Below, in pieces: positions 8,633-26,574 of a stretch of 32,000 nucleotides of DNA (its first letter is position 1; each line of letters opens with the position of its first letter). Under the pieces are notes generated by a model. The model had not been told where the DNA came from. It did not search any database and worked only from the letters and a program-made list of their open reading frames with translations. Location: NCBI RefSeq assembly GCF_000010625.1, contig NC_010296.1, forward strand, positions 4,620,001 through 4,652,000, written 5' to 3'. Origin of the DNA: Microcystis aeruginosa NIES-843 (GTDB lineage: Bacteria > Cyanobacteriota > Cyanobacteriia > Cyanobacteriales > Microcystaceae). Made by a program: the position numbers and the translations under genes.

Positions 8633-8718
8633 TGGGGGCAGAGAGACTCGAACTCTCACGAGCTTATAAGGCTCAACGGATTTTAAGTCCGTAGCGTCTA
8701 CCATTCCGCCACGCCCCC
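8633..8718 (-). tRNA. tRNA-Leu (anticodon UAA)
   Basis: The reverse complement folds as a type II tRNA. Acceptor stem is GGGGGCG/TGCCCCC, the D-arm is GCGGAATGGTAGACGC, the anticodon arm is ACGGA-CTTAAAA-TCCGT, there is a long variable arm, and the T-arm is GAGAG-TTCGAGT-CTCTC. CCA is not encoded. Confidence 0.92.
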
Positions 8719-9456: not shown

Positions 9457-9775
9457 AGCAGTTAAAACTGATTTATCTGGCATCTGGGCTTGATAATAGC
9501 CCAATTTATCTGATTTAGTCCTTAAAGTCTTTAAATAATCGGTGGGAAATAATTCCACTGCTGTGTAGTTCTGTGAAATTAAAACAATCCTATGATGAGG
9601 CGTTTGTCAAGAGAACTAATGTTAAGATTGTTTTAGAAGGTCATGAAAGAAGCAATAGAAAAAGTCGTTTTAGCAATTAGGGGATAAAATTTCCGTCGAG
9701 AATAAAAATATTTGTTCCCTATCAAGTTGCGTCGATCTATGATATGGATAATCCATTTTTGTAGAAGCGTTGTTT

Positions 9776-11203
9776 ATGAATCAAAATCAGAGCGAGAACT
9801 TGGACGGACTGGAGAAATTTCTAGTTAACCGTCGAGCGGCCCCATCGTCTTCGAGCGGAAACAGAGAGCTAGATTACGATCGATTCTACGATGCTTGTGA
9901 CTCTCTCAAACCCCTGAAAATGAATGATGAAGATAGGAAATATTACACCGACTTCGCCAGTGTGAGAGGCGGTAAAATTATTGACAGGATCAAGAAAGAT
10001 GTTAAAACTTTGCAAAGAAGTGGCAATGATTCTAGTTATCAATTCTTTACAGGACATATTGGTGGGGGAAAATCCACCGAGTTAAATCGACTAACAGGAG
10101 AACTGCTTGAGGAGGGTTTCCACGTGGTTTATTTTATGTCTGATGAGTATTTAGATACTCATAACGTCGATATTCCCGATATTTTATTAGCGATCGCTCG
10201 TCAAGTAGTAGAGAATTTGGAAGAGATAGATATTCGTCTATTTCCGGGCTATTTTCGCCGATTACTGGGAGAAATAGCTGGGTTATTAACCACCCCCTTA
10301 GAACTCGATTCCGTCAATCTAAGTTTGGGGGTAGAACTAGCGAAAATTTCGGCAGAAATCAAGACCAGTCCCAAGGCTCGTAATCAATTGCGTACCTTTC
10401 TCGACTCTCGAACCGCCTCTTTAATTGAGTCCCTAAATGATGAGATTCTCAAACCCGCCATCGAAAAACTAAAACAAAAAGGGAAAAAAGGTTTAGTGGT
10501 GATCGTGGATAACCTAGAACGAATCGCCAATCAAATAATTCCTAACTATAACTGCACCCAACCAGAATATATCTTTATCAATCGGGGGAGCGTGCTGACT
10601 GAAATTAAATGTCATTTAGTCTATACTGTACCGCTGAGTTTACTTTTTTCTGCCCAAGCTGCGATACTTCTACAGCGCATTGGCAAAAGTACCTCGATTT
10701 TACCGATGATTTTGGCGGAAGAACGAGAAGGGACTGTTCACGAACAGGGATTGAAGTTACTCAAACAGATGGTGATGGCGAGAGCTTTTCCCGATGTGTC
10801 GCCAGAGGAACATCTAGAGCCTGATTTAATCACCCAAGTTTTCCAAGATGAAACCGTATTGAATCGCCTCTGTCAAATCAGTGGGGGTCATGTTCGTACT
10901 TTACTGTTAGTCTTACAAAGCTGTTTGCTGGATGATGATTTACCCATCTCACCCAACAGTTTAGAAAGAGTTATTCGCGAGTATCGAGACAATATGCTGG
11001 TGGGGATCGGTAGCAATGACTGGGAAATGTTGCGAAAAATCGATCGAGACAAACAACTCAGCAGTGACGTGGAGAATTATCAAGAATTTCCTCGACGATT
11101 GTGGGTTTTTGAGTATAGAGATGACCAAGGGCGATGGTTTGGCGTAAATCCCATGCTCAAAGAAACCGAACAATTTAAAAAAGAGTCTTCTAGACTAGGA
11201 TAG
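9776..11203 (+). CDS. standalone AAA+/STAND-like P-loop NTPase (~475 aa)
   Basis: Walker A GHIGGGKST at 10052-10078, Walker B LVVIVDNLE at about 10493-10519, and a sensor-2-like ISGGHVRTLLL, followed by a helical C-terminus. The ORF-track start at 9770 is TTG and the first ATG is at 9776. It lies 46 nt upstream of the giant gene on the same strand. Confidence 0.7.
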   Translation: MNQNQSENLDGLEKFLVNRRAAPSSSSGNRELDYDRFYDACDSLKPLKMNDEDRKYYTDFASVRGGKIIDRIKKDVKTLQRSGNDSSYQFFTGHIGGGKSTELNRLTGELLEEGFHVVYFMSDEYLDTHNVDIPDILLAIARQVVENLEEIDIRLFPGYFRRLLGEIAGLLTTPLELDSVNLSLGVELAKISAEIKTSPKARNQLRTFLDSRTASLIESLNDEILKPAIEKLKQKGKKGLVVIVDNLERIANQIIPNYNCTQPEYIFINRGSVLTEIKCHLVYTVPLSLLFSAQAAILLQRIGKSTSILPMILAEEREGTVHEQGLKLLKQMVMARAFPDVSPEEHLEPDLITQVFQDETVLNRLCQISGGHVRTLLLVLQSCLLDDDLPISPNSLERVIREYRDNMLVGIGSNDWEMLRKIDRDKQLSSDVENYQEFPRRLWVFEYRDDQGRWFGVNPMLKETEQFKKESSRLG

Positions 11204-11249
11204 AGATAGGCTCTCGTTCCCAGTTCCCTAACCCCACACTTTCCTAACC

Positions 11250-14200
11250 ATGGTCGGTAACTATAGCGATGATGTGATTATGGCTGACAATGATCGGGCG
11301 GTAAAAGTCTTAACCCGTGCTATTCGTACTGGCATAGGCAAGTTTTCTTTGAATTTAGCCCGTTGTAATTATTCTCAATTAAGAGAATCTATTCTCGATC
11401 GATTTCATCAAGAGAATAGCAGCTTCGATCTAGAAGAACTGACGCTCTCTCCACAAGCCACCAGACTTTTTGAGGAAATTGAAACTGTCTTGCGGCATCG
11501 GGAAAAAACACCATCAGCCCTAATTATTTTGGGGTTAGAACAAGTTGAAAGTCTTGAAACCCTTTTTTCTAATTTTAATCAAGTTAGAACCCAGTTTCAA
11601 AACAGCTTTCAATTCCCTCTCTTGTTATGGGTAACGGATGAAGTGTTGGTTTCGCTCCGACAAAATGCACCGGATTTTGTTAGTGGAGGGAAGTCTTTTT
11701 CCTTTCACTGGACAACCACAGAGTTAAGTGACTTTTTGCATAAAGCAGCGGATGAGTTATTTCGTGCCGTGCTGCAAAATGGGGCGATCGGTTTTTTACC
11801 CTACACATCTATTAATAGTACAAAACTGGCTGATTATCGTCGCCGTTACCAAGAAATCGCCTCAGCTTGGCAGGAACTAGAAAGAAGACAGATTGAATTG
11901 GAACAGAAACTCAGGGCTAGTTATATTTTCGCTCAGGGAGGAGATTGTTATGACCGCTCCTTGAAACCGCAACCGATCGAAATGCGCGTTGAGCTAGTTA
12001 AACAAGCTATCGAAAAATATCAAGAAAGTTTAGTAATTTGTCAGACAATTGCCGAAAAGACCGCCGAAGGAACTCTCGATTATTGCCTTAGTCTTTGTCA
12101 CCATCGTTTGGCTCTGTTAGAAAGCTCAAAAGCCAGAGAACATTGGCAAGAGGAGGAGAAATATCTCAGCAATGCCTGTCAAATCTTCGACAATAAAGAT
12201 GCCGAGATCGCTGCTAAATTACGCAATGAACTGGGGGGGGTGTTACAAAATCTGGAAAAATGGCCAGAATTGTCCCAATTGGCTGCCGACTCGATCGCCC
12301 TAGATAGTCAGTTACAAAATCCACTGCCTCTCGCCCAAGATTATAGTTTTCAAGCCAAAATTGCCCTGGAAAAGGCCAAGGAAACTAAAGAAAAACAGGA
12401 GGAGATACTAGAAGCAAGAAAGGCGGCTAGTTTAGCGCTACAGGCCTTGAAAAGACTAAAAAGAAGTCCGCAAATCCAAAGATGGCATACTGCCCGTTAC
12501 CTGTTGCTTCTGGCCCAGGCAAAAAAACATCTAGAGAAGTGGCAACTGGCGATTAAAACTCTCAAGCGCGTCTTGCAGACGATCGAGGATGCGAGAGATA
12601 AGCTGGCAGCCCACGATCACTATGAACCAGCACTACATATCGAAATTCTCGAAGAATTACAAGAGGTTTTTTTCCATCAGCGGCAATATGAGGAAGCTTT
12701 TCAGAAAAAACAAGAGATTTTGTTAGTTAAAGGGCAAAACGGGCTACTGGCCTTCGTGGGGGCTTCGAGTTTACGTCCTCCGGTTAGTCCCACGGGAGGA
12801 GAAGAAATTCCAGATCGGGCGATCGATGCCTCCGGTCGTCAGCAAGATGTGGAGGAAATTATCAGGAGGCTAAGTCCTCGGAATCAGAAAAAGCTGACGA
12901 TCGTTCTTGGTCCATCAGGAGTAGGTAAAACTTCCATGCTAGAAGCGGGATTAGTTCCCCAATTAAGACAAGAAATCTTCGAGGGCTTGAAAATAATGCC
13001 CTTATTCTTGCGTTTATCAAAAACAAGAGATTGGAGAGAAGAAATTCAGCAGGAGCTAGAAAAAGAAAGAAAACTGCTTAATATTCATGCTTTAGTTCAT
13101 GCAGAGTCAGAAAATACTGCGATCGCTACAGCTATTGAAAGTGATCCAGAAGCATTGATGATCGAGCGGCTGAAAAGTCAGCAAGATCAAGTATTTACCG
13201 TGTTGATTTTAGATCAATTTGAAGACTTTTTCTTTATTTGCAAAAATCCTCAAGAGAGGACGAGATTTTTTGATTTTTTAAAACAATGTTTCGGAATTAG
13301 CAATGTCTTGATTGTTATCTCGTTGCGAGAGGATTACCTGCACTATCTTCTCGAACTAGAGAAATATATTCAAGATAATCAGCAATCAGAAAGAACCACA
13401 GATGCTGATTATCAAGATGTCTTGAGCTATAAAAATCGTTATCCCCTTCATAATTTTACTAAGGAGAAAGCTAAAGAGCTAATTAGGGATTTAACCAGTA
13501 ATTCTCAATTTAAGCTAGAAGATAATTTGATTGAAAAATTAGTCGATGATTTAGCGGGAAATACCGAACAGGTACGACCGATCGAGCTACAGATCGTAGG
13601 AGCGCAACTGCAAGAGGAAGAAATCAGCAGTTTGGCAGAATATATAAAATTGGCAGAGGGAGAGAATAGCCCTAAACATAGCTTAATCAAAAAATACCTT
13701 AATGATGTGGTTAAGGCCTGTGGAGAAAAAAATAAAGAGATAGCCGATCTGGTGTTGTACTTATTAACTGATGAAGATGACAAAAGACCGCTCAAAACCT
13801 TGAAAGATTTTAGGGAAACTATCGAAGATAACGACGATATTCGATTGATTTTAGTCTTGGATATTTTTGTTCAATCAAAGCTAGTCGTAGTTTATAAAGA
13901 AACATCGGAAAAACAATACCAACTCCTGCATGATTATCTATCACGACTGATTCGAGAGCAATCGAAAGCGCGAGAGGAATGGTACAGGGCAAAGATTGAT
14001 AAAATTTCCAGAGAAGCGGCAGCAGCCGAAGCTAGGGCAGCCGCTGCCGAAGCCAAAGTTAAGCTACAGATAGATTTAGACGAGGCAATCAAGGCAAAAA
14101 ACGAGGCCGAACATCAGACAGAGAAGGCGAGAAAAAAATTATATGTGGTTGGTGCAATAGGTTTGATAACGACAATTGGCGCAATCATGTCGGGGTTGGC

Positions 14201-16631
14201 TTGGATAACTAGCGATCGTTTAACCAAGCAGAATAAAGCAGAAATAGATGGTGCGAGGGTCATAAAAAGTTTTAATTCAGGCTATGGGAATTTAGAGAAC
14301 TTGTTCTTTCGCGCCTGGCAAGCTGGACAACAGTTAAACGAACTTGTGAAGACTAATTCTTCTCAAGGATTTGATAGTTATCCGACGACATCCCCTTTAT
14401 TGGCACTTCAACAAACTTTCGAGACTATAGATAAACAGGATATTTATCGATACGATCTAGGCAAAGATGATAACGGTAAGTCTAGTAACATCATGGATGT
14501 TAATTTGCAACCAGATAAAAATATAGTTACTACTATTCATACTAATGGTCAAATTCTACAACGCCAGACTGATGCACAGGGAAACTACTCAAAACAGAAA
14601 GTGAAAGAACTTGCCAATATTTCTAATTTTACCTTTCAAGGTAAGAAGATAGAATTGAAGCAAATTAATCGCATTATTTTTAGTCCTGATGGGCAGAAAA
14701 TAGCCCTAGTGATCGGGGATGGAAATAGACAAATAGTTCTGATTTGGAAAAATTGGGAATCGTCCCCAAAAGAACCAACCCAAAAAGAACCAACTTATCA
14801 CTACGAGCATCCGGGTAATGTCAATCTTCTCAAGTTTGACCCAAATTCGCAATGGCTGATGACAGTATCGGGATCTCAAATTATTTTATACGATACAGTC
14901 AATCAGAAAAAAAAAGAATTCCTCTGGGAGATATCGCCAGAAAAACCGGTAAAAAACAGAATTAGTTTAGAAGATGTGACATCCCAAAAACATAGCCGAC
15001 CATCTCGACAATCATCGGGAAATCCATCATCGATAATTTTGAGTGCCGATCTTAGCCACAATAAGAACAATCCAAAACTAGCTTTAGGATTTAACAGTGG
15101 TGAAACGGCGATAGTTGATTTAAATAACTTAGCGAAAATTAGGACTATTCAGCCCCAGGTACAAAAAGCGGTAATTGCTCTAGATTTTAATTTCGATACG
15201 CAGCTTTTGGCGATCGGCTTTGAAAATGGCAGTCTGGTCAATTTCGACTTGACAAATAATGAGATCAAATCATGCCCATCGGAAGGACTTGTCTTCAGTA
15301 AATTTGAATTTATGCCCGATAGTCTCCTAGCAATTGGCTATAGAAATGGCCTGCTAAAAATTATTAGTAGAGAATGTCAGAAATTATTTCAATTTAAAGC
15401 CCATGACCGCGAGATACAAGGACTGCAATTATCTGGTGATCGTCAATGGTTAACTACCAATTCAGAACTAGAAGTGCGTCGCTGGAAACTAGACCCACGC
15501 CAAGAATTTGCTGTTAATCCTAAAACTTCCCTATATCAAGCGAGCTTGAGCAGTGATGGCAAGCTATTAGCCACTGCCCCCAATACAGGCATTGAACTCT
15601 GGAATTTATCTGATGAAAAAGAACCAGATAAACCATTTTACTCCCAAAACAAGTCTAATGGAAATACTGATCCGATAACCAGCATTAGTTTTCAACCTAA
15701 CAATAACCAGCCAGACCTTTTGGCCACGGGTTCCTGGGGGGGAATTCTTAGCCTCTGGAGGTTCCAATCACAAACTAACCACAGACTACGGGATCAAGCA
15801 GAGGTTTCTGTGCCTAATTCTGACCAGCCAAATTCACCTATCTGGAGTCTCACCTTTAGTCAAGATGGATCGTTGTTAGCAACCGGTTCCCGGGACGGTA
15901 TCATTCAAATTAGGAGTGTGGCGGCTCTCTTGAAAAATGATACCACTCCTCTTTGTCGAATATCTATCAATAGTGACGTATTGAGTATTGCTATTCGCCC
16001 CGATAATCAACAAATAGCTATAGGTTCAGCCAATGGACAAATTTATTTATTGAATTTACTTGATAATGGCGGATGTGTTTCTAATAAACAATTGGAACCT
16101 AAAAAGGATTTTAGCCATTTTGCGGCGGTGGTCACTGTTCAATACATACCCTATAAAGATAATCAATGGTTGTTGGCAACAGGTTCCGATGATCTAACGG
16201 CTCGTCTGTGGAGCCTCGACGGTAAGGAAAAAGTTAGATTTGAAGATCATGATGGCTCCGTAAGAGGAATTGCTTATCTTCCCAAAGACAAAGTTTTGGT
16301 GACCGCTTCCGAGGATCGTTCGGTGCGATTATGGACTTGGAAAGATGATCTCGAATCAATAGACAGTTCACAACCACTAAGTGGAGAATTAATCGCAAAA
16401 CATAATGGTCATATTCGACCAATCAGAGGTATTTTCTTCCGAGACCAACCTCGTCAACTCATCTCCATATCCACTGCACCTAAAATTCGTTTCTGGCCGA
16501 TTCCAGAAAGTAAGGATTATTTACATTCGCTAATGGATAATGCCTGTAAAGAAGTTCCTAATATGGAAGAAAATAAGCAAGAAATGGAGAAGATTTGCTC
16601 AAAAATACCAAAGCAGCCATCAGAACCTTAA
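11250..16631 (+). CDS. giant multidomain protein (1793 aa): degenerate P-loop-less N-module, helical/TPR-like repeats, nSTAND-like NTPase, Ala-rich coiled coil, single TM helix, WD40 repeats
   Basis: ATG at 11250. Walker A LGPSGVGKTSMLEAGLVPQL at 12909-12932 and Walker B VLILDQFEDFF at about 13203-13226. Coiled coil AAAAEARAAAAEAKVK lies at about 13990-14135. A hydrophobic 23-mer YVVGAIGLITTIGAIMSGLAWIT lies at about 14139-14211, preceded by KARKK. From about 14650 to the end there are repeated WD-type blades, for example LLATGSRDGIIQIRS, LLATGSDDLTARLWSL and VLVTASEDRSVRLWTW. Confidence 0.8.
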   Translation: MVGNYSDDVIMADNDRAVKVLTRAIRTGIGKFSLNLARCNYSQLRESILDRFHQENSSFDLEELTLSPQATRLFEEIETVLRHREKTPSALIILGLEQVESLETLFSNFNQVRTQFQNSFQFPLLLWVTDEVLVSLRQNAPDFVSGGKSFSFHWTTTELSDFLHKAADELFRAVLQNGAIGFLPYTSINSTKLADYRRRYQEIASAWQELERRQIELEQKLRASYIFAQGGDCYDRSLKPQPIEMRVELVKQAIEKYQESLVICQTIAEKTAEGTLDYCLSLCHHRLALLESSKAREHWQEEEKYLSNACQIFDNKDAEIAAKLRNELGGVLQNLEKWPELSQLAADSIALDSQLQNPLPLAQDYSFQAKIALEKAKETKEKQEEILEARKAASLALQALKRLKRSPQIQRWHTARYLLLLAQAKKHLEKWQLAIKTLKRVLQTIEDARDKLAAHDHYEPALHIEILEELQEVFFHQRQYEEAFQKKQEILLVKGQNGLLAFVGASSLRPPVSPTGGEEIPDRAIDASGRQQDVEEIIRRLSPRNQKKLTIVLGPSGVGKTSMLEAGLVPQLRQEIFEGLKIMPLFLRLSKTRDWREEIQQELEKERKLLNIHALVHAESENTAIATAIESDPEALMIERLKSQQDQVFTVLILDQFEDFFFICKNPQERTRFFDFLKQCFGISNVLIVISLREDYLHYLLELEKYIQDNQQSERTTDADYQDVLSYKNRYPLHNFTKEKAKELIRDLTSNSQFKLEDNLIEKLVDDLAGNTEQVRPIELQIVGAQLQEEEISSLAEYIKLAEGENSPKHSLIKKYLNDVVKACGEKNKEIADLVLYLLTDEDDKRPLKTLKDFRETIEDNDDIRLILVLDIFVQSKLVVVYKETSEKQYQLLHDYLSRLIREQSKAREEWYRAKIDKISREAAAAEARAAAAEAKVKLQIDLDEAIKAKNEAEHQTEKARKKLYVVGAIGLITTIGAIMSGLAWITSDRLTKQNKAEIDGARVIKSFNSGYGNLENLFFRAWQAGQQLNELVKTNSSQGFDSYPTTSPLLALQQTFETIDKQDIYRYDLGKDDNGKSSNIMDVNLQPDKNIVTTIHTNGQILQRQTDAQGNYSKQKVKELANISNFTFQGKKIELKQINRIIFSPDGQKIALVIGDGNRQIVLIWKNWESSPKEPTQKEPTYHYEHPGNVNLLKFDPNSQWLMTVSGSQIILYDTVNQKKKEFLWEISPEKPVKNRISLEDVTSQKHSRPSRQSSGNPSSIILSADLSHNKNNPKLALGFNSGETAIVDLNNLAKIRTIQPQVQKAVIALDFNFDTQLLAIGFENGSLVNFDLTNNEIKSCPSEGLVFSKFEFMPDSLLAIGYRNGLLKIISRECQKLFQFKAHDREIQGLQLSGDRQWLTTNSELEVRRWKLDPRQEFAVNPKTSLYQASLSSDGKLLATAPNTGIELWNLSDEKEPDKPFYSQNKSNGNTDPITSISFQPNNNQPDLLATGSWGGILSLWRFQSQTNHRLRDQAEVSVPNSDQPNSPIWSLTFSQDGSLLATGSRDGIIQIRSVAALLKNDTTPLCRISINSDVLSIAIRPDNQQIAIGSANGQIYLLNLLDNGGCVSNKQLEPKKDFSHFAAVVTVQYIPYKDNQWLLATGSDDLTARLWSLDGKEKVRFEDHDGSVRGIAYLPKDKVLVTASEDRSVRLWTWKDDLESIDSSQPLSGELIAKHNGHIRPIRGIFFRDQPRQLISISTAPKIRFWPIPESKDYLHSLMDNACKEVPNMEENKQEMEKICSKIPKQPSEP

Positions 16632-16642
16632 TTGCCAAGAAT

Positions 16643-17824
16643 TTAAACAATTCCTAATTGTTTCTCTAGAGCCTCTAAGATAATATCAGCAATAATTTTT
16701 TTGGTGTATCGACAATAGATTGTTTCTGTACTCCGAAAAGTGCCATTCTCATAGTATTTATTAGCGGGAGCGCCACCACCACAGAGCGAAAAATAAGGGC
16801 AGGTTTTTTGACACATTTTAACCCCTGCTTGGATATCTCGATCGAGTTTTTTAAACTTGTCAGTTTGGTCAATTGATCGCAGGTCGTGCTGAGTTATATT
16901 TCCTAAAATAAAATCGCCATAAACATCACTTTTCATGGATAATAGTTCTGGAGAAAAAGTCGAAAAATCCCCATTATGAGCGATATTAATCATGGTAAAA
17001 GGGGTGAATTGACCTTGAAAACTATACTTCTGACAGATCAGGCTGTAAAGATCATCAAATTCCCGAACTTGCAGGAGGTTTTCAGCTTCTTTAACCCTTC
17101 CATAGAATCTTTGCATAAAGTTGCGATAACGCTCGTCAACCCCGTTGTTTTGCAGAGAAGATGAACGATTTGTTCCCTCTATTTCCTCGATATTGAAACC
17201 CACATATCGAATCTTATTTTCGAGGAAAAAATCAAAAATCTCATCGGGATAATCTAAGGATATATCGCTCAAAACTGCGATAACAGAAAAGGGAATCTGA
17301 TTATTTTGTAGTAACTTGATACCTCTCATTGTACTTGCATGAGTTCCCTTGCCGGTGCGAGTTCTACGATGAGCATCATGGATAAAATCCGGCCCGTCGA
17401 TACTAACCCCTATTCTTAGGTCGTATTCTTTGATAAAATCACACCATTCTTGCGTGATCATTGTGGCGTTAGTTTGCAAGGAATGCTCGATTTGATAGGG
17501 ATTAGGATTAATTTCTTGATTTAATTTATCGATGATTTGGATAGCAGCAGTATAAAAAGAAATAGGCACTGTTAGCGGTTCTCCCGCGTGCCAAACGATC
17601 GTAAATCCCCGCAAATCAATCAAATCACTAGCAAAAATATTTCTAAAAATTGGTTCTATCAGTTCTAGGGATAGTTTGTATTTTAGCTGGCGATCGGGCA
17701 AGTAACAATAGTCACAATCTAAATTACAAAAAGTTGTGGGTTGAATAACCACTAACTTGACTGAACCCTTTTCGGAAGGTTTATATCCCCAATTGTCTAT
17801 ATATTGTCTGAGAAGTTCAATCAT
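16643..17824 (-). CDS. radical SAM/SPASM peptide maturase (anaerobic-sulfatase-maturase-like; GRRM/OscB-type cyclophane-forming clade suspected)
   Basis: CxxxCxxC motif (FCNLDCDYCY) at 17705-17728, GEPL, and a C-terminal auxiliary-cluster Cys pattern CQKTCPYFSLCGGG...YCRY. Two candidate substrate genes sit immediately upstream on the same strand. Confidence 0.85.
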   Translation of the reverse strand: MIELLRQYIDNWGYKPSEKGSVKLVVIQPTTFCNLDCDYCYLPDRQLKYKLSLELIEPIFRNIFASDLIDLRGFTIVWHAGEPLTVPISFYTAAIQIIDKLNQEINPNPYQIEHSLQTNATMITQEWCDFIKEYDLRIGVSIDGPDFIHDAHRRTRTGKGTHASTMRGIKLLQNNQIPFSVIAVLSDISLDYPDEIFDFFLENKIRYVGFNIEEIEGTNRSSSLQNNGVDERYRNFMQRFYGRVKEAENLLQVREFDDLYSLICQKYSFQGQFTPFTMINIAHNGDFSTFSPELLSMKSDVYGDFILGNITQHDLRSIDQTDKFKKLDRDIQAGVKMCQKTCPYFSLCGGGAPANKYYENGTFRSTETIYCRYTKKIIADIILEALEKQLGIV

Positions 17825-17989: not shown

Positions 17990-18307
17990 TTAGTAATTTC
18001 CCCAATTTGCCCAGTTTCTCCAGCCATTGTACCAATCGCCCCACTGTGCCAATCTTTGTTCTGATTGTTCCTCTAAATTATCTATTGGTTTATTCGGGGA
18101 GTCCGACGCATAATCTTGACTGTTTAATTCCTGTTTATGCAATTCTAGCTGTTCTCTCACCCGATCCAAACGTTCCTGCACACCCAACCTAGAGGCGGCC
18201 TTAGCTTCTATTGATAAGACTTTCGATTGACCGTAGCCGAAAAGTGTTGCTAGAGTCGTAGTCAGCAAAATTGCTAGTTTTTGCCAAAAGTTACGTTTCT
18301 GTCTCAT
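17990..18307 (-). CDS. RiPP precursor candidate A (105 aa) with C-terminal W-x-N/D core
   Basis: ATG at 18307 with GAGG 5 nt upstream. It has a signal-peptide-like N-terminus (MRQKRNFWQK-LAILLTTTLATLFGYG...EAKA|AS) and the leader helix ERLDRVREQL. The C-terminal core WGDWYNGWRNWANWGNY is at 17993-18043. Confidence 0.7.
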   Translation of the reverse strand: MRQKRNFWQKLAILLTTTLATLFGYGQSKVLSIEAKAASRLGVQERLDRVREQLELHKQELNSQDYASDSPNKPIDNLEEQSEQRLAQWGDWYNGWRNWANWGNY

Positions 18308-18355: not shown

Positions 18356-18700
18356 TTATCGATTAGCTTGAGGTTCATTACCCCAATTGTTCCAATTGTG
18401 CCAAGGAGTAGGGGGAGTGGGAATTGTACCCCCACCAGAACCGCCATCATCTGTTTTTTTAGCGATCGCTTGCCCCCCTATTTTAACCGATTTATCTAAA
18501 GTCTGTGGCTTTTCATCGATAATGCGCTGCCGACCGATCATTTCCCGAACTTTTGCTAATCGCCCCTCTAGATTAGACTGATGATCAGCCTGAGTATCGG
18601 CCGCTAATAGAGCTTTATTCCCACTAGGACTAAAAACAAAAGTGACGAGCGTGGCCAAAATCGTGGTTAATATTTTCGGAAGCAGATGTTTTAAATTCAT
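18356..18700 (-). CDS. RiPP precursor candidate B (114 aa) with C-terminal W-x-N core
   Basis: ATG at 18700. It has a signal-peptide-like N-terminus (MNLKHLLPK-ILTTILATLVTFVF...ALLA|AD), the leader helix GRLAKVREMI and a Gly-rich linker DDGGSGGG. The core WHNWNNWGN is at 18377-18403, followed by EPQANR. Confidence 0.7.
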   Translation of the reverse strand: MNLKHLLPKILTTILATLVTFVFSPSGNKALLAADTQADHQSNLEGRLAKVREMIGRQRIIDEKPQTLDKSVKIGGQAIAKKTDDGGSGGGTIPTPPTPWHNWNNWGNEPQANR

Positions 18701-19258: not shown

Positions 19259-19454
19259 TAGGGTTTGCGGCAAAAAGTTTTTCCTAGGGGCAGGGTGTGG
19301 GTTTTACCGATTTTGAGGGGGTCAATTACCTAATTTTCAGGGAAAAAGTCCAGGAATTTTCCCCCTGATCACTCCCAGGGCCGGTACTTTTTGATTGACA
19401 AAAAGTCTAAAGATATTATCCAACAAGGTTTTTAGATTTATTCAGCCAGCCCTA
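19259..19454. repeat. ~196-bp dispersed intergenic element, copy 1 (MITE-like or structured spacer element)
   Basis: Near-identical to 24241-24458 in the same orientation. It fills the whole spacer between convergent genes and overlaps the stop of the GH88-like gene. Internal hairpins include ACTTTTTG-attga-CAAAAAGT and CAGGGAAAA...TTTTCCCCCTG. Confidence 0.85.
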
Positions 19455-20879
19455 AGTAGCGGGTAAATCTTGGTATTCAGCCAAAGCATTTATAAAAAAC
19501 AAGTCTCCCCAAATTAAACCCGTATCATAGATTTGGCTGGGTTGAATCGCGGCGGGATGATGATAACAACCATGACGCAATAAACTCATCTCTGGGGCGG
19601 TTTCGTCGGGAAAATAGGCAAAAGAAGTCAAATTCAAGAGAGTATTATCGATCGCCTCTCGATAGGTTCCATAACTAGGATCACTGCTGGGTAAAGCTTT
19701 TAATAAGCGAATCATCCCCGCCACAGCGATCGCCGCTGCCGAAGAATCCTTTTCCGTAGCGGCATTTTTTTGCAAGGCATAATCAAAGTCCCAGGGAGGA
19801 ATAAAATCCCCGGCGCGTCTTTGTCCACCGGGCCAGCGATCGGGCAAATTGTCCAGATAATAATTAATGGCATCCTTGGCAATGGTTAACATTTCTGGAT
19901 CGCCGGTGTAAATATAGGCCGTCGTGGCAGCATAAATAAACCAAGCTTGACCCCGGGACCAAGTGCTATCATCGCGCCAGCCCTGTTTTCCCTCATTAAA
20001 TAAGAAATTTCTATAGGTGGGAGAGTTGACATTTTGATCAAAATAGCCTCTTTGCCAAGTTCCCGTTTTACCCGGGCGACGGTTAGCCCCAAAGGTGCGG
20101 CTAATGGTGCGGATGTGGGAAAGGGCCTTTTCTTGCCAATCTTTTGCCTCCTTGGGGTCAGGATTGTGGAGACTTGCCCAGAGCATTTGTTCTATATTGA
20201 TCGTATGGTCGATAAAAACCTGCCAATGTTCTTGCTGATCGGTGCGATCGGCCTTGCGTAACCAGCCAAAAGTCCCGATATCGGTGTGATAACTCCCTTT
20301 GCCATCCTGAAAAGGTTGCGCTAGTTGTCTGGCGGACTGTAAAGTTATCTCTAAAGCTGCCTGTTTTTCCTGGCCCCGTCCCGACTCAAACCAAGGAGCA
20401 AACACCAGCACATTATTGAGAGCGATGTCTTTGTTCTTCAAACTCGCTTCTTTTAAGGGATCGCTCCATTTTTTCGCGGCAGCTGCCCAAAATCCCGCAT
20501 CCATAGGGTTTGATTCTAAGTCAGCAATTTTCCATAATAAAGCAGCAAAAGCTCCGGCTGCCCAAAAATCAGCCTTTTCTAACTTCCAAGTGCCGGGGGT
20601 GGGACTATTCCTCCTCCGTAGCCAATTGAAGAAATTAAAACCCGATGGCTCTGGATGGGTAAGATAGGGATAGAGAATTCCCCGACGGGCATAACTATCG
20701 AGATAGTCGATCGTGGTAGCTAGTTTAATCTTAGCCAGATCGAGACAGAGCTTAATTCTTGCAGCTAGGGGCATTTTAGCCCGCAATTCCGCCGCCGATT
20801 GGGGACGATGGACAATCCGGACGGCCACCGCACCGATCGCCGCCCCCGTACCCATAATAATTAGCGTGCGTCGCTTCAA
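19452..20879 (-). CDS. glycoside hydrolase family 88-like protein (unsaturated glucuronyl hydrolase-like) with an RR-containing N-terminal signal-like segment
   Basis: DDSTWSRGQAWFIYAATTAYIYTGDP and IPPWDFDY resemble GH88 motifs as I recall them. TTG start at 20879 with AGGAG 8 nt upstream. The N-terminus is (M)KRRTLIIMGTGAAIGAVAV. Confidence 0.55.
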   Translation of the reverse strand: MKRRTLIIMGTGAAIGAVAVRIVHRPQSAAELRAKMPLAARIKLCLDLAKIKLATTIDYLDSYARRGILYPYLTHPEPSGFNFFNWLRRRNSPTPGTWKLEKADFWAAGAFAALLWKIADLESNPMDAGFWAAAAKKWSDPLKEASLKNKDIALNNVLVFAPWFESGRGQEKQAALEITLQSARQLAQPFQDGKGSYHTDIGTFGWLRKADRTDQQEHWQVFIDHTINIEQMLWASLHNPDPKEAKDWQEKALSHIRTISRTFGANRRPGKTGTWQRGYFDQNVNSPTYRNFLFNEGKQGWRDDSTWSRGQAWFIYAATTAYIYTGDPEMLTIAKDAINYYLDNLPDRWPGGQRRAGDFIPPWDFDYALQKNAATEKDSSAAAIAVAGMIRLLKALPSSDPSYGTYREAIDNTLLNLTSFAYFPDETAPEMSLLRHGCYHHPAAIQPSQIYDTGLIWGDLFFINALAEYQDLPAT

Positions 20880-26436: not shown

Positions 26437-26492
26437 AGAAATTTCTGCTCTACTGCGTCGGCTAGTGGTATAATATAATAGTATTTTATTGT

Positions 26493-26565
26493 GGGTACGT
26501 AGCTCAGAGGATAGAGCACCAGGTTCCGGTCCTGGGTGTCGGGGGTTCGACTCCCTCCGTACTCG
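26493..26565 (+). tRNA. tRNA-Arg (anticodon CCG)
   Basis: Cloverleaf: acceptor GGGTACG/CGTACTC, D-arm GCTC-AGAGGATA-GAGC, anticodon arm CCAGG-TTCCGGT-CCTGG, variable loop GTGTC, and T-arm GGGGG-TTCGACT-CCCTC. A TATAAT lies at 26469-26474 upstream. Confidence 0.92.
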
Positions 26566-26574
26566 TTCAGAAAT

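Follow-up and report, generated by a model that had tools for sequence, protein, structure and literature searches.

In organisms from bacteria to humans, switches of innate immunity and cell death are built around STAND NTPases, and to our knowledge all characterised members are soluble proteins that carry or recruit a recognisable effector. What, then, could be the output of a locus that encodes two NTPases of this broad kind side by side, with no such effector in either? We addressed this question for a gene pair of Microcystis aeruginosa NIES-843, located at positions 9,776 to 16,631 of a 32,000-nucleotide stretch of its genome (contig NC_010296.1, positions 4,620,001 to 4,652,000; this whole stretch is denoted the window, and positions follow its numbering). 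The smaller upstream gene is here denoted g1 and the large downstream gene g2. By exact look-up their translations are identical to BAG04874.1/WP_012267485.1 (g1) and BAG04875.1/WP_012267486.1 (g2), which the databases annotate as 'AAA family ATPase' and 'nSTAND1 domain-containing NTPase', respectively. The comparisons below point to g1 and g2 as one conserved cyanobacterial two-protein NTPase module, and we give about even chances to a reading in which g2 would be a STAND receptor that crosses the membrane once and cooperates, through a constant N-terminal module, with the ATPase g1, no enzymatic effector being involved.

With a g1 profile we scanned the species of GTDB, each represented by a single genome; more than 600 stretches matched, of which we kept the best 80 loci. 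A g2-family open reading frame (ORF) is present in 75 of these 80, a recurrence well beyond chance, and in at least 74 the gene directly after g1, in the same orientation, encodes the N-terminal module (N-module) and nSTAND1 domain of g2, usually together with WD40 repeats; of the loci that deviate, two are contig ends, two hold g1 alone and one is a fusion. A reciprocal search starting from a g2-type protein recovered a g1 homologue (42% identity) 34 nucleotides (nt) upstream. Both P-loops are intact in all 66 homologous pairs. The two genes overlap or lie at most 60 nt apart in 29 of 76 pairs, the stop and start codons overlapping in 23. An earlier, sequence-only reading of this locus had described two co-directional genes 46 nt apart, and its coordinates and all the motifs that it quoted were found in place; it had named a pair that is not conserved in other genomes, or a degenerate P-loop, as results that would speak against it, and the joint presence of the genes in 75 of 80 loci and the 66 pairs with intact P-loops answer both. 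All-against-all clustering of the neighbouring ORFs at the 80 loci revealed no third gene travelling with the pair. At one Moorena locus (L090, 1-7922), a full-length g2 with N-module, nSTAND1 and WD40 (1,695 amino acids, aa) is followed in tandem by a short g2 of 973 aa without WD40, and hence some loci hold g2 duplicates behind one g1.

Homologues of g1 number more than 2,400; nearly all have a length of 430-480 aa and an identity of about 50% to the protein of the window, and every one that bears an organism name is cyanobacterial. In an alignment of 24 members, the motifs GxxGxGKST (Walker A), hhhhDNL(D/E) (Walker B) and SGGHxR are all invariant, as are the Walker B residues D245, N246 and L247. 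The Pfam scores of g1 all lie below gathering: ATPase_2 (PF01637) reaches 24.5 versus 33.2, NPHP3_N 20.7 versus 24.8 and nSTAND5 19.1 versus 34; precomputed matches to PF01637 or PF13401 exist for many of its homologues. Searches of NCBIfam and PADLOC with g1 gave nothing useful, and a profile search of PDB sequences gave no significant match. In the AlphaFold model of g1 (predicted local distance difference test, pLDDT, 78; predicted template modelling score, pTM, 0.76), Walker A and B of an alpha/beta P-loop core are separated by a helical insertion of ~100 residues; the other two elements are a helical lid and a C-terminal helical and beta-hairpin domain. The top Foldseek matches of this model in the PDB were Orc1/Cdc6, yeast and fly ORC subunits, Apaf-1, CED-4, plant NLR resistosomes, PAB2304, TnsC and RdrA, with a probability of ~1.0, E-values of 4e-6 to 6e-4 for Orc1/Cdc6, Apaf-1, CED-4 and 2qen, and modest TM-scores of 0.25-0.52. 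By Foldseek and by the secondary structure of the model, g1 has the parts that define the Orc/Cdc6-STAND group: an ASCE P-loop core, a helical lid and a C-terminal domain of winged-helix type. SGGHVR lies at a helix start in the lid region of the model, a weak profile match covers the RFC3 region 195-257, and SGGHxR may act as sensor 2. Together, the model supports a view of g1 as a minimal soluble AAA+ ATPase of the Orc/Cdc6-STAND neighbourhood, without sensor repeats or effector, which agrees with the AAA+/STAND-like ATPase previously proposed from its motifs.

The g2 protein consists, in this order, of an alpha/beta domain, a TPR solenoid, nSTAND1, a charged linker, one predicted transmembrane helix and a WD40 propeller region (Table 1). 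Its first ~500 aa form a constant N-module that occupies the slot where relatives carry an effector or adaptor. Beyond a weak TPR match, g2 aa 1-528 match no Pfam family. A model of the N-module from a 68-sequence alignment (pLDDT 89.7) shows beta-alpha units at aa 1-176 and a solenoid at aa 187-496. Word-indexed homologue searches with the N-region gave just 2 and 9 proteins, and we used exhaustive HMMER instead; with g2 aa 1-200 as query it yielded an alpha/beta domain family of 826 representative clusters at 50% identity. In each of the 150 representatives listed, out of 826, the domain stands at the N-terminus or close to it, and nSTAND1 (PF20703) is also present in 30 of 30 relatives scanned. 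The invariant residues of the domain are mostly polar (N14, R23, C39-N40-Y41, E97, N110, R113 and D142). Neither a Pfam match (18 of 18 members) nor a PDB sequence match was obtained, and we consider the domain a probable novel one, specific to this family and absent from Pfam. The order of strands and helices and the 'GLE' and 'WVxDE' motifs had prompted the idea of an inactivated P-loop (iSTAND); we rejected it for lack of sequence support, as hhalign comparisons of the domain with the profiles of g1 and of nSTAND1 stayed under a probability of 2% and the Pfam and PDB profile searches came back empty. Foldseek was run on the whole N-module model, in which the TPR part dominated the matches; the solenoid came closest to TPRs that bind peptides, those of LGN/Pins, kinesin light chain and Rap/NprR. 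Membership of g2 in EACC1 or among the effector-associated domains (EADs) was likewise rejected, given that Pfam showed no matches and that the description of EACC1 does not fit. One relative in which the N-domain and nSTAND1 run into a full-length phosphoenolpyruvate carboxylase (P0171, 1,932 aa) was judged a probable gene-calling or assembly fusion and was not used.

Membership of g2 in nSTAND1 is already known and annotated. The protein scores above the profile cut-off, has intact Walker A and B motifs, with D655, F657 and E658 of Walker B invariant in the alignment, and carries C-terminal repeats of a superstructure-forming kind, so that the 'novel STAND' P-loop NTPase with a WD40 array, as earlier suggested, is borne out by PF20703 at 111.9 bits and by the WD40 models. 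The absence of an effector also held: NCBIfam searches of both proteins found no nuclease, protease, TIR or CHAT domain, Pfam and PADLOC likewise found none, and no family of PADLOC-DB v2 (Avs, bNACHT and others) matched g1 or g2 at E <= 0.1. Sensitive searches thus assigned neither a known effector nor an already characterised system. Four features that the sequence-only reading had missed change the picture: the transmembrane helix, the ~500-aa constant N-module, synteny with ftsQ-ftsZ and strain-variable presence in Microcystis.

The transmembrane helix lies between the NTPase and the propellers, behind a linker that may be coiled-coil-like. An equivalent helix occurs at the conserved position in 56 of 64 g2 homologues, with at least 21 residues and Kyte-Doolittle values of 1.7-2.6. 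Lys/Arg residues flanking it average 3.7 on the N-side versus 1.9 on the C-side among homologues, a positive-inside bias that is moderate and amounts to 4 versus 3 in the window g2 itself. All family members keep the N-module and nSTAND1; what varies is the C-terminal module, and the number of transmembrane helices varies with it. One helix precedes WD40 in most members, including the window g2, and one precedes TPR (P0219, P0247). A single helix also precedes CHASE2, an extracytoplasmic sensor domain, and further helices follow it (P0231). Two closely spaced helices precede a Ser/Thr kinase with intact HRD, DFG and APE motifs (P0257, from locus L040). No helix stands before Roc-COR (P0134), a dynamin-type GTPase (P0235) or HEAT repeats with an AsnC-type ligand-binding domain (P0276), and none separates nSTAND1 from a second NACHT (P0191). 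This fit between the helix count and the compartment that each C-terminal domain needs is the best available argument that the helix truly spans the membrane with the N-terminus inside. With a cytoplasmic N-terminus and a spanning helix, the g2 propellers would lie outside the cytoplasm, a topology to which hydropathy, the Lys/Arg bias and the domain-dependent helix counts all point. The propeller models of Pfam start at ~aa 1060 or 1230 and run to ~1760, which would be enough for two propellers, and we found no DNA-level tandem repeats or homogenisation of WD40 repeats in g2. C-x-[YFW]L-x-C ends 49 of the 52 complete WD40-type homologues, including the few without a transmembrane helix; the consensus, LDxLLxRGCxWLxDYLxxNPxVxxxDRxLC, has two conserved cysteines that may serve in a disulfide, in metal binding or in a capping helix.

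We also examined where the pair resides and how it evolves. In 33 of the 80 loci it stands head-to-head with ftsQ-ftsZ (Pfam-confirmed), in Oscillatoriales-type and Nostocales genera that include Microcoleus, Tychonema, Lyngbya, Limnoraphis, Okeania, Trichodesmium, Cylindrospermum, Mojavia, Iningainema and Fischerella. In the g1 tree, which is largely vertical, the ftsQ-ftsZ-linked copies fall into a few clades, consistent with one old orthologous lineage, and further copies in these genomes are paralogues at other positions; paralogues of the pair are common and occur in several genomes. The window copy is a long-branch outlier and is not adjacent to ftsQZ. The divergent spacers between ftsQ and g1 (142-2,468 nt) share no regulatory motif, in that no 9-mer is widely shared and GTAN8TAC sites are sporadic. 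The most conserved component is g1, with a mean pairwise identity of 0.68; nSTAND1 reaches 0.57, the alpha/beta domain 0.50 and the TPR 0.47. Purifying selection acts on all modules: among 15 Microcoleus/Tychonema orthologues, the ratio of nonsynonymous to synonymous substitution rates (dN/dS) stays within 0.08-0.23 in each module, with 0.10 in g1, and there is no sign of a diversifying sensor. Microcystis alleles differ by 0.1-0.3% of amino acids in the N-module, the least variable part, and by 1.6-1.9% in the WD region; the linker is the only hot spot among them, being the most variable and most indel-prone segment.

In the mechanism that we favour, the cytoplasmic part of g2 would consist of an output or adaptor N-module, made of the alpha/beta domain and a TPR of the peptide-binding type, followed by the nSTAND1 NTP switch, and the linker and single helix would join it across the membrane to the sensor, a double WD40 propeller. 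A ligand on the propeller would relieve autoinhibition, nSTAND1 would then exchange nucleotide and oligomerise, and oligomerisation would cluster the N-modules of g2, which would engage their obligate soluble partner g1; the ATP-driven assembly of g1 itself would be the output or an amplifier. From their co-occurrence and translational coupling, g1 and g2 may interact physically, and the pair probably acts as a signalling switch across the membrane; the direction of signalling, like the biological role, is one that we infer. A two-step or checkpointed switch, which the sequence-only reading proposed from the paired active NTPases, may be at work. We favour signalling tied to the envelope, to division or to the state of the cell over abortive infection of the classical kind because of the purifying selection, the largely vertical g1 tree, the ftsQZ synteny and the signalling-type C-termini of relatives (CHASE2, kinase). 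A more far-reaching proposal, which we put forward only tentatively and on balance doubt, is that the pair embodies a new mode of transmembrane signalling: a single-pass STAND receptor would read a periplasmic or lumenal signal with extracytoplasmic propellers (TPR or CHASE2 in relatives) and, through NTP-driven oligomerisation and a new alpha/beta-TPR adaptor, pass it to a dedicated Orc/Cdc6-like AAA+ ATPase, and the ancestral copy would be wired to ftsQ-ftsZ, coupling the state of the envelope or of neighbouring cells to division or cell fate, not to phage defence.

Several observations weigh against the receptor reading. The topology of g2 is read from hydropathy and domain logic, and about 6 of the 64 WD40-type homologues have no transmembrane helix yet keep the same C-terminal Cys motif. 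The gap between the genes exceeds 300 nt in 34 of 76 pairs, so that co-transcription is not universal, and mirror-tree and partial correlations of g1 with each g2 module are all ~0.45-0.6 and do not discriminate between the modules. At two loci (L022 and L033, 9989-11365 in both) an ftsQ-adjacent g1 has no g2 and is followed by a convergent GH15/phosphorylase-kinase-like gene, which means that g1 can persist alone beside ftsQ. In Scytonema hofmanni UTEX 2349 (L052, 8853-21299), the g1 homologue forms the N-terminal 440 aa of a 1,094-aa ORF whose extension has a partial match to CHAT, a caspase-like domain, the only such case among the 80 loci; the fusion is flanked on both sides by CHAT ORFs, followed by a coiled-coil protein, a Reg_prop beta-propeller protein, Hsp70 and a clostripain-family (C11) peptidase. 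Within Microcystis, the pair is missing from seven of eight distinct contexts of the identical DUF3007 gene that lies upstream of g1 in the window, and is thus dispensable or accessory in this genus. In the pair-less contexts (L081 and L083-L088) similarity to the window continues through the 5' leader and stops exactly at 9808, 11 codons into g1; one of them (L087) has a 39-aa remnant ORF called at the g1 start position, and two others (L083 and L085) have IS1 or ISL3 transposase genes just past the junction. The remnant ORF, the junction and the insertion sequence (IS) genes make it seem that the pair was lost or rearranged repeatedly in IS-rich Microcystis. Finally, the nSTAND1 clade is predicted to be part of counter-invader systems (PMC8195603), and this prediction, the absence from seven of eight Microcystis contexts and the g1-CHAT fusion fit a role in conflict better.

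Such a role would make the pair an NLR-like counter-invader system of the abortive-infection or programmed-death type, in which WD40 would detect a molecule of a phage or other invader, nSTAND1 would form oligomers and a cryptic effector would kill the cell or halt it. We regard this as possible, if on the unlikely side. nSTAND1 was defined within predicted conflict systems with N-terminal effectors or EADs and C-terminal sensors (PMC8195603), and the N-terminal position is the effector position in relatives; the alpha/beta domain, with its conserved polar constellation (invariant C-N-Y, E, N, R and D), would for that reason be the prime candidate for a cryptic effector, g1 being another, for instance through runaway ATP hydrolysis. 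The paralogous copies in several genomes, the strain-variable presence with IS elements at the empty site, the varying C-terminal modules and the one CHAT-extended g1 homologue, whose locus also contains further CHAT genes and a C11 peptidase, would all suit such a system. Against it, PADLOC matches nothing in either protein and no known effector domain was found, purifying selection extends everywhere, WD40 included (dN/dS ~0.15), with no hypervariable sensor, and g1 is 68% identical on average across cyanobacteria, with its largely vertical tree. Synteny with ftsQ-ftsZ kept across families is unusual for defence islands, the alternative C-termini (CHASE2, kinase, AsnC-type ligand-binding domain) are typical of signal transduction, and an extracytoplasmic sensor would miss intracellular phage proteins.

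This last point depends on the helix, which could instead be merely a membrane anchor or oligomerisation element, the whole of g2 including WD40 being a cytoplasmic, soluble or peripheral STAND protein like Apaf-1. The homologues that lack the helix but keep the same WD40 and Cys motif, and the moderate Lys/Arg bias, favour this, and we know of no characterised STAND-WD40 protein, Apaf-1 for example, that senses other than cytoplasmic ligands. We nevertheless hold it unlikely, as the helix keeps its length, hydrophobicity and position in 56 of 64 homologues and the helix counts match compartments, with two helices before an intact kinase and CHASE2 flanked by transmembrane helices. The order of action could also be reversed, with g1 as an upstream licensing or chaperone ATPase that remodels or loads g2 and sets its activation threshold, by analogy with MoxR in MoxR-vWA-iSTAND systems, and with the variable C-terminal module or the N-domain as output. 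That g1 is first in the operon, is the most conserved component and has an AAA+ fold of the loader/initiator type would be in keeping with this, as would the thematic precedent of ternary systems and the signalling enzymes (kinase, Roc-COR, dynamin) that can form the C-terminal module of relatives; the C-terminus is, however, mostly a non-catalytic repeat array, probably beyond the membrane, and no vWA-like co-chaperone is present. We regard the idea as quite improbable. That g1 and g2 are neighbours by descent only, with no joint function, can draw on the long gaps and on the g1 genes without g2 and is in our view very improbable: order and strand are kept in ~75 of 80 loci, in many genera and several paralogous lineages, the stop and start codons overlap in 23 pairs, the N-domain family is confined to g2-type proteins and the reciprocal look-up recovered g1. 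The long gaps are AT-rich and hold no conserved sequence or small ORF beyond close relatives (the gap loci were not scanned against Rfam).

The features of the window locus are collected in Table 1. No terminator-like site was found on the + strand between g1 and g2. The neighbours of the pair are housekeeping genes on one side (queG, a HAD hydrolase, tRNA-Leu and DUF3007) and, on the other, a cluster for a ribosomally synthesised and post-translationally modified peptide (RiPP). A tRNA-Leu(UAA) (8633-8718, - strand) lies ~1 kb upstream of g1 and a tRNA-Arg(CCG) (26492-26566, + strand) further downstream; apart from these two tRNAs, an Rfam scan of the window found no family at gathering score. 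Directly 3' of g2, on the opposite strand, is a gene for a GrrM/OscB-type cyclophane-forming radical SAM/SPASM peptide maturase (16643-17824, -), which matches TIGR04261 with 598 bits versus a cut-off of 310. Beside it are two small ORFs (17990-18307 and 18356-18700, both -) with signal-peptide-like N-termini and Trp/Asn-rich C-termini (WYNGWRNWANWGNY; WHNWNNWGNE); with their repeated W-x-N motifs they look like precursor peptides of the maturase, with which they make up a RiPP cluster of an already known kind. A further ORF (19452-20879, -) has exactly the 475-aa length of g1 and was considered as a paralogue, but it shows no similarity to g1 and was rejected; it has no Pfam or NCBIfam match.

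Table 1. Features of the g1-g2 locus, in window positions, with residue numbers of the respective protein
Feature	Residues	Position	Strand	Basis or remark
Terminator-like hairpin		9485-9503		After the upstream DUF3007 gene
Leader of the g1-g2 unit (5'), with probable promoter		9504-9775	+	Gene-free
g1 ORF, 475 aa from ATG		9776-11203	+	ORF listing; mechanical ORF begins at TTG 9770
g1 Walker A, GHIGGGKST	93-101	10052-10078	+	GxxGxGKST in 66/66 homologues
g1 Walker B, VVIVDNLE	241-248	10496-10519	+	hhhhDNL[DE] in 65/66 homologues
g1 sensor-2-like motif, SGGHVR	369-374	10880-10897	+	SGGHxR in 66/66 homologues
g1-g2 intergenic spacer, 46 nt		11204-11249	+	
g2 ORF, 1,793 aa, multidomain nSTAND1 protein		11250-16631	+	ORF listing
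g2 alpha/beta domain, five beta-alpha units	1-178	11250-11783	+	AlphaFold2 pLDDT >90
g2 TPR-like helical solenoid	187-505	11808-12764	+	AlphaFold2 helices 187-496
g2 nSTAND1 (PF20703)	529-898	12834-13943	+	E-value 7.1e-32, 111.9 bits versus gathering score 27.1
g2 Walker A, GPSGVGKTS	554-562	12909-12935	+	GxSGVGK[ST] in 66/66 homologues
g2 Walker B, LILDQFED	652-659	13203-13226	+	DQFE[ED] in 59/66 homologues
g2 charged Ala/Glu/Lys-rich helical linker	899-962	13944-14135	+	Sequence
g2 single hydrophobic helix, predicted transmembrane, VVGAIGLITTIGAIMSGLAWI	966-986	14145-14207	+	Kyte-Doolittle 1.97
g2 WD40/beta-propeller region (~700 aa)	~1060-1760	14427-16529	+	Pfam WD40 122 bits, many propeller models
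g2 C-terminal two-cysteine motif (DYL...C...C)		16515-16598	+	Divergent copy in the window

The RiPP cluster accompanies g1-g2 also in L082, the sole other Microcystis context with the pair. In that strain a VMAP-type ternary conflict system (L082, 1-5492) lies ~5 kb upstream, beyond queG; it comprises a caspase-VMAP protein, an AAA ATPase and an FGE-sulfatase protein, with a DUF3368/UPF0175 pair alongside, and the region is a plasticity zone.

The g1-g2 family stands apart from other STAND proteins in its large size, in a sensor placed behind a predicted membrane helix, in a very strongly conserved N-module in place of an effector and in a second active ATPase as companion. If the membrane-receptor model is true, the family would add a class of receptor to bacterial signal transduction and offer a tractable example of two chained NTP switches. 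If the pair is a counter-invader system, either its N-terminal domain or g1 would constitute a novel type of immune effector. The linkage to ftsQ-ftsZ in filamentous cyanobacteria gives a concrete phenotype to seek, and the strain-variable presence in bloom-forming Microcystis provides natural knock-outs.

How does the pair compare with systems already described? Proteins of the nSTAND1 type occur mainly in cyanobacteria and other colonial or multicellular bacteria, and the described members carry N-terminal EADs or effectors (TIR, caspase, trypsin, kinase), often with FGE or lectin sensors (Kaur, Burroughs, Iyer & Aravind, eLife 2021, PMC8195603). g2 resembles them in its match to PF20703 well above threshold, its intact P-loop and its layout of N-module, NTPase and C-terminal repeat sensor; it differs in an N-terminus made of an alpha/beta domain and TPR, in the transmembrane helix between NTPase and sensor and in the second active AAA+ ATPase as obligate neighbour. 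The hallmark of nSTAND1 conflict systems, an EAD, a Death-like adaptor or a known effector at the N-terminus, accompanied by neighbouring genes for matching EAD-effectors, was not found at the g2 locus. With the Apaf-1/CED-4 apoptosome the pair would share an NTP-driven oligomerisation switch, a double WD40 sensor and a non-catalytic N-terminal adaptor that recruits a separate executor, and the g1 model resembles the nucleotide-binding modules of Apaf-1 and CED-4; unlike there, the NTPase is nSTAND1 and not NB-ARC, the adaptor is not CARD, the partner is an ATPase and not a caspase, and the propellers are probably outside the cytoplasm. Avs1-7, bNACHT and CARD-NLR-like proteins follow the same STAND logic of sensor repeats and NTPase, but they are single cytoplasmic polypeptides with fused nuclease, protease, TIR or Sir2 effectors in defence islands, whereas g1-g2 has no PADLOC match or effector, possesses a transmembrane helix and is under purifying selection throughout.

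Two further systems resemble the pair in their operon logic (Kaur et al. 2020, 2021). In the MoxR-vWA-iSTAND/VMAP ternary systems, an AAA+ ATPase likewise stands next to a STAND-type protein and a constant core combines with variable modules; g1 is, however, Orc/Cdc6-like and not MoxR-like, and neither MoxR nor vWA was found in g1, g2 or the window neighbours, or recurrently across the 80 loci. The nSTAND2 two-gene operon also pairs two STAND-like NTPases, but one of these is inactive and carries GT4 or HEPN effectors, whereas both NTPases of g1-g2 are intact and Pfam finds no GT4 or HEPN. Taken singly, g1 has its best structural neighbours in Orc1/Cdc6 and the archaeal PF01637 proteins (PAB2304, PDB 2qen), with which it shares Walker A and B, a C-terminal winged-helix-like domain and perhaps a sensor-2-like lid motif; it departs from these neighbours in its sub-threshold Pfam score for PF01637, in TM-scores of 0.33-0.45 and in the ~100-aa helical insertion between Walker A and B. 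As in bitopic bacterial receptors whose beta-propellers or CHASE2 domains lie outside the cytoplasm, such as PknD-type Ser/Thr kinases and CHASE2 receptors, a cytoplasmic signalling module, transmembrane helices and an outside sensor appear to be combined in g2, one relative of which has CHASE2 itself and another a kinase; unlike in those receptors, the transducer is a STAND NTPase with a partner AAA+ ATPase, not a kinase, cyclase or GGDEF domain. In theme, the nearest precedents are the EACC1/EACC2 constant-component systems with variable C-termini from the Aravind group, MoxR-vWA-iSTAND and the nSTAND2 operon, whose defining components we tested for and found absent. A search of the literature for nSTAND1, PF20703, EACC1, Synechocystis WD-repeat genes, division-linked WD40/STAND and transmembrane STAND returned no description of the g1-g2 pair. 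Relative to Pfam, NCBIfam, PADLOC and the searchable papers, the new elements are an Orc/Cdc6-like ATPase as conserved partner, the domain at the N-terminus of g2, a membrane helix whose number follows the type of C-terminal domain, and the linkage to ftsQZ.

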